Below, piece by piece: positions 19,600 to 42,369 of a stretch of 64,000 nt of DNA (positions are counted from its first letter, which is position 1; each line of letters starts with the position of its first letter). This DNA is from Candidatus Heimdallarchaeota archaeon (GTDB lineage Archaea > Asgardarchaeota > Heimdallarchaeia > Heimdallarchaeales > Heimdallarchaeaceae). Under the pieces are notes generated by a model. That model worked only from the letters and a program-made list of their open reading frames with translations, was not told where the DNA came from and ran no database searches. The stretch covers positions 1 to 64,000 of the forward strand of contig JAHLWR010000004.1 of the NCBI GenBank assembly GCA_019057815.1, written 5' to 3'. The translations under genes and the position numbers were made by a program.

Positions 19600-19780
19600 C
19601 CAAAGACAGGAACAAGATTAATGATGAGTTATTGTCTCCTTGTAACATTAGACAAGAGTTAGTTAAGTGTATTTCTTAGAGGTCATTACAATGCTTCGAT
19701 GCTCACTCTGAGTGGATACATCACGTATCCTCCTACCCCGTTCACACTACGTTGAGGTAGTGCTTTCGGATCGCTTTTGA
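19600..19780 (-). ncRNA. Predicted omegaRNA/reRNA of TnpB element 1 (5' boundary approximate)
   Basis: Hairpin GGATAC-GTGAT-GTATCC whose loop can pair with the terminal CATCAT (pseudoknot); predicted guide = flank TAATCTTGTTCCTGTCTTTG. Confidence 0.65.
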
Positions 19781-21042
19781 CTAGAATGTTGTACGCTGCG
19801 TTCACATCAGCGTTGATGAGAAAACCTTGAGCAGATTTGAACAACCCTCGGGTAACTCGTCGTCCAGCATATTTCTGTCTTTCTTGGGGAAATTCATTAT
19901 CCAAAAAACTGCATTTAGAGGTATATTCTTCTGGGATGAGCTCGACTTTTATCCCTTTCTCTGCAGCCTTATACTTCAGCATGTTAATAATACGCATATA
20001 AGGGATAGCAACAAACATCTGGGTGAGTTTTTTCCAGAAATGCACCCCTTGTTTCCATTTCTTGTTATAGCCAATAATTACCTCATGGATGTTTCGTTCC
20101 ACCCACAAATCTACTAGATAACTAGTGAGCTTGTGTATGGCATCCTTAAGTTTCTTTCTCCATTTTTCCCTGAGCTTATAATATGCTGGACCATAATTTA
20201 GTCTATTCTTCACCTTCAGCTGTTTTCTTTGCTGTTGGACATATTGTTCGCGTAATTGTGTTTGTTTCTTCAAATAATATTGTGTAATGGATTTTATTCC
20301 TTTCCCTGCGTCCTTGATAACAATCGGTTGTGAGCCGAGGTTATCCACAAAGGTCACAAGGTTGACCATCCCTAGATCGATCGCTCCTTTCCGTTTTGTT
20401 CGTTTTCTAAGTTTAGGTAAGGTTTTTTGATAGACAATTTCAATAGTATATCCTACTCTTCGTGGTACTATCCTCACTTCTCGCAATTTTGTTAGAGGAG
20501 TTAGTCGTGTTTTGTAATGGAACCCCACTTTTTTGGGAAGGACTAGCCATCCATTGATTATCCTTGCTTGTTGGTTGGTAATAATTGCTACCACCTCCCC
20601 ATCCTTAGCCTTATATCCAGGAGGACGAGGCGTAGCGAAGAACGCTTCAGGATTCGCTCTCCACTCCTTTTTTGCTTGGAAATATCCTTTCCAATTTCTG
20701 CAAAGAAGTTTGAGGGTGTGTTGGGCAGTATGGGCGGGAAGAACCTTGTAACATTCTTCTTGTTTAAGTAACTTATTAAGATCATAGTAGAAGAGAATCT
20801 TACTCTCCTTCTCCAACGATTTTTTTACCAGAAAATTTGCTCGATTGTAGAGATTTTTGACTTGATGACAAAGCTTACTTAACGTTGGAATATAACCTAC
20901 TTCTATGCATTCCACTCTAAGAACTTTTGTCATCCTTAGTTTACCCAGACGTAGATATAAAAACTCTAGTAATATTTGCACCAAAGAGTAGTTTAAGATG
21001 ATTGTTACGTCCCCTTATGTGATAAGGAGACAAATATTATTC
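19621..21042 (-). mobile_element. TnpB-only (IS1341-like, non-autonomous) element 1
   Basis: Removing it restores ATT TTT ATT AAT CTT GTT in the EamA gene; inserted 3' of TTTAT, ends in TCAT; subterminal hairpins/IRs containing TTGTCTCCTT. Confidence 0.92.
19686..20933 (-). CDS. tnpB: TnpB RNA-guided nuclease (rearranged RuvC-II type)
   Basis: KNLYN, IDLG (RuvC-I), IIGYNKKWKQ, EEYTSKCSFLD, GLF, NADVNAAYNI (RuvC-III); ATG at 20933. Confidence 0.93.
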   Translation of the reverse strand: MTKVLRVECIEVGYIPTLSKLCHQVKNLYNRANFLVKKSLEKESKILFYYDLNKLLKQEECYKVLPAHTAQHTLKLLCRNWKGYFQAKKEWRANPEAFFATPRPPGYKAKDGEVVAIITNQQARIINGWLVLPKKVGFHYKTRLTPLTKLREVRIVPRRVGYTIEIVYQKTLPKLRKRTKRKGAIDLGMVNLVTFVDNLGSQPIVIKDAGKGIKSITQYYLKKQTQLREQYVQQQRKQLKVKNRLNYGPAYYKLREKWRKKLKDAIHKLTSYLVDLWVERNIHEVIIGYNKKWKQGVHFWKKLTQMFVAIPYMRIINMLKYKAAEKGIKVELIPEEYTSKCSFLDNEFPQERQKYAGRRVTRGLFKSAQGFLINADVNAAYNILVKSDPKALPQRSVNGVGGYVMYPLRVSIEAL

Positions 21043-39724: not shown

Positions 39725-40699
39725 TTCTAATCTTTATCTTGTTTTTCTTTTTCTTCTTTTTTTTCATCATAATTCCAAGGACAGATCAATATCACTTTAT
39801 TTTCAACAATAAAAGTTGCTAGCTCACTATTAGGATAACATCCTACATCGTCATAGAAAGCTAATACAGCTCCATCTTCTGGAGCTTTTATGATCTCTTT
39901 AGTTTCTCCAAAAATATTTCGTATTTCTATAATAGGTTCTCCTTTCTCAACTAATTTGCCTTCTTTTACAAGTGGGATAAACAATCCTGATGTTGTGGAA
40001 TGAATAGGTATTTCTTGCCATAATTTTTCGTCCAAATCTGGCATCAAAGGCTCCCTCTTAGGCTCAGTCTCTAATATTTTTGCCCATCCTAAAACATTTA
40101 GAATCCCCTTTTTAGCGATTTTAATGAGATCTCTTTTAACAATTCCAGATCCTCCGAGCTCAACTGTAAAAGCAGGTTTTCTGAAACCATTAACAAAACT
40201 ACCTGTTGTTGACCTATGGAGATTTTGTCTGAAGTAATGTCTTGGGGGATCTTCAACAACTACAGGCAAATTAAAAAGCTTAACCATCACCAAATTGTAA
40301 TCAAATAATTGCTTGGCGCTTTCAATCTGGCTTTTATCATCATCTTCTTCATAATAAACACGATCAATATATGAGAAAGGAACAGATTGAATAGAATGAC
40401 AGTGTAAATCGATATAATAGTCAACTTCTTTGAAAATCTCTGAAATGGTGGAATAAACCTGCTCTTGAATCTCTGAAAAATTTTTGGGGTCTAGTAATTT
40501 ATCATACGGATCTTCATAATTTATTATAGGTTCTTTCTTTGGTTTCGGATCTAACCATAGCCGATTTGGGTCTGAATCAGTATAAAACGGTGATCTTTTT
40601 AGTGTTAATAATCCCGCTGGATTTAAGGTGGGTAAAACAACAACACAACCTTTCATTTTTAGAGGGTCTAGTTCCTGAATTACTTCTTGTAGAGCAACT

Positions 40700-40900
40700 A
40701 AACCATGTAATTCGCTTCCATCGACTTGATTTTTGTACAATTTTCGTATACAATCATCTTGCACTCAGGTCAATCAACAGGGACTGATCCGCTCATTGTG
40801 CCGTTAGAGACGGTCGAGGGCACCTCAGCCACAGAAACTGGATAACACGAGGTTAGCCGCTCACGTGGAACAGGTAGATAGGATGACCAGGAACTGAACA
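40700..40900 (-). ncRNA. Predicted omegaRNA of TnpB element 2 (5' boundary approximate)
   Basis: GC-rich 3' overlap GAGGTGCCCTCGACCGTCTC; TCGAC (40813-40817) complements terminal GTCGA; predicted guide GGAAGCGAATTACATGGTTT. Confidence 0.6.
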
Positions 40901-42142
40901 ACTTCAACCCTTGTTTATATTTACCTAAGAGGGAGATATTACGCGAAGCGTTGCGGTCAGCGTGGACTTCAAATCCACAGAAATGACATCTGTAGAAGTC
41001 TCGAGTAGTACGTGATTGTTTACTCCTCTTACCGCAACGCGAACAAGTTTGACTGGTAAAATGGGGATAAATAGGAATAATTGATATACTGTGGAGTTGA
41101 GCAAGATGGATAAGTTTGTACAACAACACTCTGTACGGCCACTTGTTCAACTGTCTGCGAGCCTTTTTAGCTCCCTTCTTATCTTTTGTTGCTTGTTTGG
41201 TCCATTTTTTACGAAGATGGGTGACATCTTCAACTACGATAGCAGAACGAGTGAGAACTGCTAAATCAACTATTTCATGTGCGATCTGCGCACAACGGGT
41301 TTGAACATACTTCTTTTCACGATACTTTAACCTTTTGAGTGCACGCCGTGCACTGACACTTCCTTGACTAGCATGTTTTTGTAACATTGCTCGTCGTTTA
41401 AGGAACTGGTGCTGTTTCCACGCCAGATCCTTCCCAAGATATTGTTCCACCAGAGGAAAACAAGGATGGTTGAGAGTGTAAGCTGCTGCTACTTTAACTC
41501 CTATGTCCACTCCGATGGTTCCTTCCACCTCTTGGACGGGGGGAAGCGGTCGACGAATAACCAGATGCGCTACCCACTGACGATTATTCTTGAACACAAT
41601 ACAACTGTGAGCCTCCCATCCTCCTTTAACGTGGTCTCGGAGACGATACCACCCTCCGTTCATCTTAACAGGGAAAGCTATACGTTTTTTTAAAGGTGAA
41701 AGCGAGAGTATGGGGTGCCCTTGAGCGGTAAATTTGAGGTTTCCACTTCGAGGAAAATTGAACTCTAGGGGGAAGTTGCGGAAGAGTATAGCTTTTTTAG
41801 CTGCGTACACTCTCCGTTGTACCGCTTCCTGAACTTGACTCTGAATGCCAAGATGTTTGTGTTTACGATAAACTATGTGGTGGAATTTGGTTAAAGAGCT
41901 AGCTTGGTTGGTGAATGGTAGGAGTTGATTAGCAAAAGATACAATCTTTACCTGTGCTGTATTCAAGTATCTCTTTTTTTCTTTTCCAGGGGTTAAAACT
42001 AACGGGATAGTCTTCTCGATCATTTTTCTCGAAATGCTTTTTCTCCCCTTAGTTTGCATCATCTTTCTATCTTTATTTTCCTATAAAAACCCGTAGTATT
42101 ACATAATTATACTACTTATAAAATTGTACAAAAAAGTCTCTC
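40720..42142 (-). mobile_element. TnpB-only element 2
   Basis: Removing it restores ATT CAT GGA AGC; AT(G) at both junctions; 15-bp perfect IR TTTTTGTACAATTTT at 40730-40744 and 42120-42134. Confidence 0.92.
40770..42062 (-). CDS. tnpB: TnpB/Cas12f-like RNA-guided nuclease
   Basis: GVDIG, VVED, TSQTCSRC, CHFCG, HADRNASRNI; all three RuvC carboxylates present. Confidence 0.93.
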   Translation of the reverse strand: MMQTKGRKSISRKMIEKTIPLVLTPGKEKKRYLNTAQVKIVSFANQLLPFTNQASSLTKFHHIVYRKHKHLGIQSQVQEAVQRRVYAAKKAILFRNFPLEFNFPRSGNLKFTAQGHPILSLSPLKKRIAFPVKMNGGWYRLRDHVKGGWEAHSCIVFKNNRQWVAHLVIRRPLPPVQEVEGTIGVDIGVKVAAAYTLNHPCFPLVEQYLGKDLAWKQHQFLKRRAMLQKHASQGSVSARRALKRLKYREKKYVQTRCAQIAHEIVDLAVLTRSAIVVEDVTHLRKKWTKQATKDKKGAKKARRQLNKWPYRVLLYKLIHLAQLHSISIIPIYPHFTSQTCSRCGKRSKQSRTTRDFYRCHFCGFEVHADRNASRNISLLGKYKQGLKLFSSWSSYLPVPRERLTSCYPVSVAEVPSTVSNGTMSGSVPVD

Positions 42143-42369
42143 ATGAATATTAGCTGAAAGCAAGAACAATGGTCCGTCTTCTTTACCTCTTATTATTGCA
42201 ACAGGTAATTTTTCTATGTTGCCATGAGGATATTCGAATATATCTACATATGCGAACTTCTTCTCACCTGGGTGACTCTGGATTCCAAAAATTTCCATAA
42301 CTTAGGAGGATGCACTTATATTTTAAGTATTATTGCTCGAGGTTTGTTTTTCAATAACATTAGTGATTA

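Follow-up and report, generated by a model that had tools for sequence, protein, structure and literature searches.

A 1423-bp element in the window, i.e., the 64,000-nucleotide stretch of contig JAHLWR010000004.1 (assembly GCA_019057815.1) from a Heimdall-group Asgard archaeon analyzed here, is a non-autonomous ('IS1341-like') TnpB/omegaRNA transposon without a transposase gene, bearing the dinucleotide AT at both junctions and an inverted repeat positioned symmetrically about it. Among the modes of movement considered, a conservative 2-bp crossover at AT, catalyzed by a serine-type recombinase acting in trans and proceeding via a circle, is ranked first, with a probability of roughly 0.5. 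In the following, G000 designates the genome holding the window and G001 its sister genome, while C-numbers refer to contigs and L-numbers to fetched loci; among the relatives of the host are Ca. Heimdallarchaeum aukensis PM71 and H. endolithica PR6, both with closed genomes. The element and the gene it interrupts comprise the following features.

40720 to 42142, minus strand: whole element with one of the two AT copies, 1423 bp
40770 to 42062, minus strand: tnpB, 430 aa
42080 to 42089, minus strand: TATA-box-like element TTTTTATAGG, upstream of tnpB
39727 to 40719, minus strand: 3' part of the host gene (AstE/AspA-type succinylglutamate desuccinylase/aspartoacylase family, Pfam PF24827)
42145 to 42298, minus strand: 5' part of the host gene

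A single long open reading frame runs through the region on the minus strand (42062 to 40770), and this tnpB is the sole gene of the element. Its 430-aa product is matched by the Pfam model PF07282 (Cas12f1-like_TNB, 58 bits versus a cut-off of 26.3), by the NCBIfam model guided_TnpB (124.6 bits versus a cut-off of 100) and by solved TnpB and Cas12f structures. The RuvC-like triad is intact (D186, E278, and D369), and a zinc ribbon of the type CxxC..CxxC is formed by C340/C343/C359/C362. Judged from nuclease domain, triad and the guide RNA features described below, the element is a member of the TnpB/omegaRNA systems. The sequence TTTTTATAGG is conserved in all full copies of the element as well as in its mini-copies and probably represents the promoter element of tnpB.

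The open reading frames flanking tnpB on the minus strand (39727-40764 and 42116-42298) are the two halves of one AstE/AspA-family gene, which is inactivated by the insertion. Excising exactly 1423 bp rejoins both halves in frame. The His codon split by the insertion belongs to a stretch ..IHGNE.., where the intact orthologue of G001 has ..SANIHGNELHG.. without interruption. In this sister genome of the same genus, the uninterrupted host gene shows 94% identity, and its empty site ..AATATTC-AT-GGAAAC.. corresponds to ..AATATTC-AT-(element)..GTCG-AT-GGAAGC.. in the window, such that AT is present once in the empty site and once at each junction of the occupied one. Moreover, a contig from runs X10/X12 of the same study connects position 40718 to 42142, with 1423 bp skipped. 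This contig is about 92–94% identical to the window and possibly stems from a G001-like organism, so that it is not fully independent of G001.

For comparing the ends, copies of the element, henceforth family D, were searched for in relatives, with a right-end pattern in 185,579 genomes, JGI metagenomes and IMG/VR, and with the protein in genomes and viral contigs. The ends in the window are composed as follows.

42143 to 42147, minus strand: left-flank motif TTCAT, the predicted target-adjacent motif (TAM), with the flank AT at 42143-42144
42120 to 42134, no strand assigned: left-end arm of the 15-bp inverted repeat
40730 to 40744, no strand assigned: right-end arm of the 15-bp inverted repeat, with a second GTAYA-type copy about 14 bp further in

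The inverted repeat is perfect over 15 nt, with eight bases between each arm and the AT (40720-40721 and 42143-42144), and chance alone would yield about 0.007 such pairs in 1.7 kb of DNA with 33% GC (our own arithmetic). Both arms change jointly between subfamilies (GTACAATTTT versus GTACATTTTT); the second GTAYA copy besides this subterminal repeat is found at the right end only. When one end is reverse-complemented, the outermost eight bases show 0 of 8 matches. These results bear out an earlier note on the same DNA, made from the sequence alone, in which a perfect 15-bp repeat near the AT on both sides and outermost bases not taking part in the inversion had been described.

The junction statistics rest on about 70 junctions, namely 41 distinct right ends and 28 curated left junctions, the latter remaining from a list of 38 after about ten false regex hits had been removed by hand. 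All 41 right ends conform to the consensus ..T(C/T)AAG(T/A)(T/C)(G/T)AT. At the curated left junctions, AT occupies positions -2/-1 in 28 of 28 cases, preceded by C at -3 in 27 of 28 and by T at -4 in 28 of 28, whereas -5 is mostly T or C, TTCAT being the commonest form of the left flank; C at -3 and T at -4 are significant already in the uncurated list of 38 (P = 1e-13 and 9e-8, respectively). The first base of the element is G in every copy, while behind the right end, G comes first in 28 of 41 cases (P = 2e-13) and 35 of 41 have a purine at +2. The only sequence common to both junctions in every family-D copy is AT, and together with the single AT of the empty site this agrees with the AT core that had been proposed for both junctions. 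Read from the aligned junctions, the target is (Y)TCAT^GR (^, junction), a near palindrome TCATGA with AT at its center. The TAM predicted from the 28 left junctions is (Y)TCAT, to which the TTCAT predicted earlier comes close, its function as a TAM being a prediction in both cases. The alternative reading of a 3-bp CAT duplication, also raised in the earlier note, has to be dismissed, as the right end closes with GAT or TAT and never with CAT, whereas the flank has CAT. Likewise, a 3-bp ATG duplication is rejected, with 13 of 41 right flanks lacking the initial G though all elements begin with G. When comparing the flanks of other copies, as that note had proposed, no variable 3-bp duplication emerges and AT is constant.

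The right end also delimits the guide RNA, for which the following features were assigned.

40720 to 40867, minus strand: omegaRNA scaffold, overlapping the tnpB 3' end and stopping at the right end
40813 to 40817, minus strand: 5' arm of the pseudoknot, reading TCGAC on the minus strand, with its partner at 40721-40725
40721 to 40725, minus strand: 3' arm of the pseudoknot, reading GTCGA on the minus strand, one base from the right-end tip
40700 to 40719, minus strand: flank 3' of the right end, the predicted omegaRNA guide according to the TnpB homing model and, combined with TTCAT, the predicted empty-site target

In an alignment of 22 right-end regions from family members (A1), a conserved fold including the pseudoknot has 92.5% of cells paired, compared to 79% in shuffles. 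Nineteen pairs are changed on both sides, a level reached by none of 500 shuffles, and shifting the partners by one to three columns abolishes the covariation signal. Four of the five pseudoknot pairs covary among the 22 members (TCGAC/GTCGA, TAGTC/GACTA, TCAAC/GTTGA, and TCGGT/ACCGA). Because this terminal pseudoknot covaries, the scaffold can be said to end at the AT, one base short of the tip, in agreement with the end that the pairing TCGAC/GTCGA had been suggested to fix. A search against Rfam gave nothing relevant, with no family for the omegaRNA. The predicted guide target, TTCAT followed by GGAAAC.., is present as the empty site in G001.

The same geometry is not confined to family D. 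About 35 tnpB genes belonging to several families are found in G000, and a layout of flank..YAT^G/A, spacer and arm at the left and arm, spacer and ..AT^flank at the right is common to six families, i.e., D (the 430-aa element), B (419-aa TnpB), mini-elements of 234 bp, E (425-aa), F (element 1 of the window) and G (505-aa). In all six, the arms are in register when the left end is compared, ungapped from the AT, with the reverse-complemented right end, in line with the attP-like symmetry about AT that had been claimed for the window. The arm sequence differs by family (GTACA-type, GTCAT, GTCTCC or CCCCAC), while the geometry is constant. Element 1 (19621-21042, minus strand, 1422 bp) encodes a 432-aa TnpB between TTTTTAT^GAATAATATTTGTCTCC ... 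GGAGACAATAACTCATCAT^, and its family F reaches 28 matches per genome in relatives. TnpB similarity according to BLASTP is about 25% between D and B and about 29% between B and E/F. Between D and F no match was obtained, and this includes element 1, corroborating that two unrelated TnpBs with the same end layout reside in the window. At eight E/F loci read by eye, the left flank is mostly TTAT and the right end TCAT; AT is thus again constant, and position -3 distinguishes flank from tip. The close E/F copies listed (at least 55% identity) are all from the same archaeal family as G000. The mini-elements are protein-less, 232–237 bp long (G000 C1:108324-108557, C27:13310-13541, C43:79403-79639, and C44:13992-14224) and bear GTACA-type repeats with AT at both junctions (TTAT^AAGCAGTTTTTTGTACA ... 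TTTGTACAAAATTCATGTCAT^). Other tnpB families of the genome are organized differently. Of the classical ones, an autonomous IS605 with Y1 tnpA inserts after TTAC and has GC-rich hairpins and a TCAA tip, and a TnpB-only family (410 aa) has a hairpin end similar to that of IS605, whereas the ends are of another kind in an IS607-type family encoding a 652-aa TnpB.

Within G000, family D is further represented by one degenerate full copy (C12), a solo left end and three mini-copies of 342–343 bp (C43, C7, and C27) which retain left end, TATA-like box and guide-RNA region. The wider scans added full copies of 1.4–1.6 kb, mini-copies of 350–353 bp, an ends-only copy of 63 bp and solo right ends. The 63-bp copy, in L070 (a Heimdallarchaeota CSMAG_1088 contig), consists of left and right ends alone (TTTCAT^GAAAGCTATTTTGTACAAAA..AAAAATGTACAAAAATCAAGTTGAT^AGCC), and the solo right ends at L066, L080, L083, and L093 measure 30–90 bp. 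The TnpB clade is small, with about 20 clusters among 5.8 billion proteins, of Heimdall type wherever a source is named. Family-D members and a mini-copy are present in the complete genome of PM71, and the closed PR6 genome holds six mini-copies, 98.9–99.7% identical, at different TCAT^G(A/G) sites. As these six near-identical copies occupy different sites, movement in PR6 must have been recent.

Two further observations concern individual family-D loci. The full copies at L050 (PR6) and L054 (PM71) have an identical right flank (AATGAAACTA..) and differing left flanks, which suggests a rearrangement or an inter-copy recombination at one locus. A 390-aa IS4/IS5-type DDE element with terminal repeats CAGTACTTGAAC.. 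is located in G000 (C43:177488-178740) between TTTTTATGTAC and GTACAAAAAATG, with GTAC duplicated, and the same element splits the right-end repeat of the G001 family-D copy (L056, G001:C249) exactly at GTAC; it looks like an insertion sequence targeting the GTAC core of TnpB-element repeats.

A serine-type crossover is favored because the AT shared by ends and target sits at the dyad center once the ends are joined; in the circle-junction model, a dinucleotide at the dyad center of two inverted half-sites is the crossover site of serine recombinases. Left and right ends would recombine at AT, thereby restoring the host site with one AT and releasing a circle. The predicted circle joint, right end-AT-left end (right-end tip ..AAATCAAGTCG-AT-GAGAGACTTTTTTG..), would be a crossover site of dyad symmetry, its inverted half-sites lying 8 bp away from the AT. 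Then, the circle would recombine with an AT-containing target, preferentially at (Y)TCAT^GR, with the enzyme being encoded outside the element and acting in trans. The omegaRNA-guided TnpB may read (Y)TCAT as TAM and cut the emptied donor site, by which the element would be copied back, while the GAT or TAT tip of the right end would protect occupied sites from TnpB. The burst of mini-copies in PR6 speaks for this mode of movement, as it indicates recent mobility in trans.

Most of this arrangement has counterparts in the IS607 family (IS607, IS1535, ISC1926, and the C. botulinum IStron), where likewise nothing is duplicated beyond the shared dinucleotide, one copy of which is found in the empty site and which closes the left flank and the right end, the ends carry subterminal inverted repeats with short motifs, and the core dinucleotide terminates the omegaRNA scaffold at the right end, TAM and tip differing at -3. 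The IS607 IStron that has been tested has TGGG as TAM and TCGG as right-end tip, and its scaffold closes with the two bases of the core. By analogy, the equal last two bases of TAM and scaffold in family D, combined with the difference at -3, would follow the same logic. Distinct from classical IS607 elements, however, the core is AT and not GG, the arms are equidistant from the core and not at unequal distances, the element has no tnpA, and the elements encoding the IS607-type TnpAs of G000 and its relatives have ends of a different kind. Accordingly, family D shows IS607-like junctions with AT as core but lacks the TnpA by which that family is defined, an element-encoded serine recombinase with a MerR-like helix-turn-helix at the N-terminus, and it does not have the ends of IS200/IS605 elements. 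The layout is close to that described for the IS607 family, so that it is better regarded as a variant than as a separate class. A second parallel is provided by Tn4451/Tn4453, mobilized by the large serine recombinase TnpX, which have 2-bp identical end sequences and many dinucleotide-defined sites, Tn4451 inserting with low specificity by 2-bp identity at many GA sites; these are, however, larger bacterial elements encoding their own recombinase, without TnpB and with the dinucleotide GA.

The search for a partner enzyme extended to about 60 family-D loci from genomes, metagenomes and viral contigs, none of which bears a tnpA. Just TnpB-only copies, mini-copies and solo ends were obtained from the 185,579 genomes, the JGI metagenomes and IMG/VR, and the contexts of TnpB relatives with 46 and 34% identity did not disclose a transposase-bearing copy of family D either. 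Joints of the type right end-AT-left end were not found in the assembled contigs of G000 or in the fetched loci. Resident transposases were rejected one after another. The two Y1 tnpA genes of G000 lie in IS605 copies of the TTAC/TCAA type with hairpins (C4 and C8), the GC-rich hairpin ends of which are unrelated to those of family D. The C27-type IS607 element, encoding the 652-aa TnpB, has ends differing from family D, and likewise the IS607-type elements on C9 and C18, with GG at the junction, have no ends in common with it. Nor does the TnpA of the latter qualify as general mover, since it occurs only in G000, with a relative of 47% identity in G031, and is absent from genomes with active copies. 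Its two gene copies (G000 C9:67852-68603 and C18:1-753) are 89% identical, have a GG left junction and are both cut off by a contig edge about 60 bp past the stop codon, at an identical base, with the continuation unassembled. The C9 copy has a GTACA-like palindrome GGTACAAAG..TTTTGTACC across the start codon, the second arm of which is degenerate in C18. IS4/IS5-type elements carry their own unrelated terminal repeats and are not suitable as movers. No convincing inverted repeats surround the small serine recombinase genes.

Several points weigh against the AT crossover by a serine recombinase. Classical IS607 ends have arms at unequal distances and GG termini, and a palindromic AT overlap would give a serine recombinase no polarity. 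From the sequence alone, moreover, a conserved 2-bp overlap is indistinguishable from a 2-bp target duplication. A serine transposase with matching ends was not found in the searches described. The IS607-type elements of G000 have a GG junction or other ends, and no IS607-type TnpA is present in the complete genomes of PM71 and PR6, which contain family-D members. An IS607-type serine tnpA precedes a 42% relative of the element-1 TnpB in the class-level relative G051, which as such speaks for the crossover, but this autonomous element has ordinary, non-symmetric ends. Finally, the nearest outgroup of the family-D TnpB clade (34% identical) has a classical end with a Y1-type hairpin. For the putative mobilization by a recombinase, no partner with matching ends was found in the genome, its relatives, metagenomes or viral contigs.

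The alternative surviving best, possible though doubtful, is a mover of another kind, such as an Asgard Cas1-type integrase, a mismatch-tolerant tyrosine recombinase or an uncharacterized nuclease, which would read only AT and the paired ends. The failure to find a cognate transposase of any known kind agrees with this, and a repeat sequence specific to each family at constant geometry fits a recognition of paired arms. Asgard Cas1-TnpB transposons have been reported, and Cas1 genes are present, but none adjoins a TnpB here, and casposon-type integration gives long duplications, which are not seen here. For a tyrosine recombinase, the 2 bp shared by the ends are too short an overlap, whereas a 2-bp overlap at the dyad center is the signature of serine recombinases.

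Quite unlikely is a cut-and-paste mechanism by a DDE transposase, in which a 2-bp staggered cut at the center of TCATGA would duplicate AT, following the logic of IS630/Tc1-mariner elements at CTAG/TA, and the copies would resemble miniature inverted-repeat transposable elements. The target is indeed partly palindromic with AT in the middle, the repeats of families E, F, and G extend imperfectly to the tips (ATGA at both), and TnpBs linked to IS630 DDE transposases within symmetrical ends have been described (branch DDE-6, Altae-Tran et al., 2023, PMC10691335). However, the latter elements encode a DDE transposase and a helix-turn-helix protein, and an IS630-type DDE_3 gene of this kind was found neither in G000 and G001 nor in the complete genome G004. 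In addition, a DDE enzyme normally needs like tips, whereas those of family D are not inverted, with none of the outermost 8 bp shared, and the terminal repeats of the resident IS4/IS5-type elements are unrelated. Where such 2-bp duplications are known, they consist of TA and not AT, and TnpB homing presupposes precise excision.

Highly improbable is a single-strand mechanism of IS200/IS605 type, with a Y1 (HUH) TnpA acting in trans and the element inserting 3' of TCAT without duplication, the AT tip being coincidental. To be sure, the majority of TnpB-only elements is ascribed to this mode; IS1341-type elements, palindrome-associated transposable elements and stand-alone omegaRNA mini-elements of IS200/IS605 resemble family D in carrying only TnpB, in being non-autonomous and in having diverged copies and deletion derivatives which retain ends and scaffold, here the mini-copies of 342–353 bp and the 63-bp ends-only copy. 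Two Y1 tnpA genes exist in G000 and one in PR6, the TnpB relative with 34% identity combines a hairpin with a TTAC-type end, and insertion following a motif of 4–5 nt fits, although the flank TCAT fits a shared AT core equally well. Yet IS200/IS605 ends are characterized by similar imperfect hairpins near each end, which family D does not show: its arms are complementary to each other and not to themselves, forming a true inverted repeat without local hairpins, and are unpaired in the fold. The sole left-end hairpin of the window copy is lost in copies 90% identical to it, and the arms of E, F, and G are not self-complementary at all, corroborating that no matching pair of Y1-type hairpins exists, as the earlier note had stated. 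The IS605 of G000 taken as control shows the expected hairpins. DNA-folding z-scores of the ends are not discriminating, the hairpins of this control being weak by that measure as well, and the argument on hairpins is therefore based on their conservation and on the sequence of the arms. Furthermore, the resident Y1 elements insert after TTAC and bear GC-rich unrelated hairpins, a Y1 gene is missing from PM71 despite its family members and mini-copy, and strict AT tip, symmetry about AT and the preference for G at +1 play no part in the Y1 mode.

Returning to the serine-type crossover, the enzyme acting in trans might be a conserved chromosomal one. We consider it unlikely, though worth following, that the AT-centered TnpB elements of the Heimdallarchaeaceae, in lieu of a transposase of their own, use one of two small serine recombinases, termed SerA and SerB.

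G000 C1:82593-83312, strand not given: SerA, small serine recombinase, single-copy orthologue
G000 C24:157206-157904, strand not given: SerB, small serine recombinase, single-copy orthologue

Both are 74–83% identical across genera and present in single copy, in 28 of 30 genomes of the host family versus 0 of 30 genomes of neighboring families, and family D is likewise found just in this archaeal family. SerA always adjoins a housekeeping gene of the IF-2B family. In the complete genome of PR6, with its recent mini-copy burst, they are the sole serine recombinases detected, accompanied by one Y1 gene with classical ends. The catalytic domain, which is weakly similar to those of IS607-type and large serine recombinases, comes first and is followed by a segment with the motif ..SRPPFGY..VDE..IIRRLF.., in which Pfam finds no domain and which we take to resemble the 'recombinase domain' of large serine recombinases. 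As co-occurrence at the family level amounts to a single phylogenetic event, SerA and SerB are a lead and not evidence.

The question of which enzyme moves TnpB-only elements is an old one, raised for example by haloarchaea, where they were mobile in the absence of an intact Y1 transposase (PMC3119063). The lineage studied here offers a clean test case, with one geometry across unrelated TnpB clades, six mini-copies of 350–353 bp in PR6 as ready donor and few candidate enzymes. For an Asgard TnpB clade with intact triad, it also provides a predicted TAM, (Y)TCAT, and an omegaRNA supported by covariation. Should a host recombinase or a new AT-core serine transposase turn out to be the mover, the known partnerships of TnpB would be widened; and if SerA or SerB were the enzyme, these transposons would be hijacking a host recombinase, as integrative mobile elements exploiting Xer (IMEX) hijack Xer.

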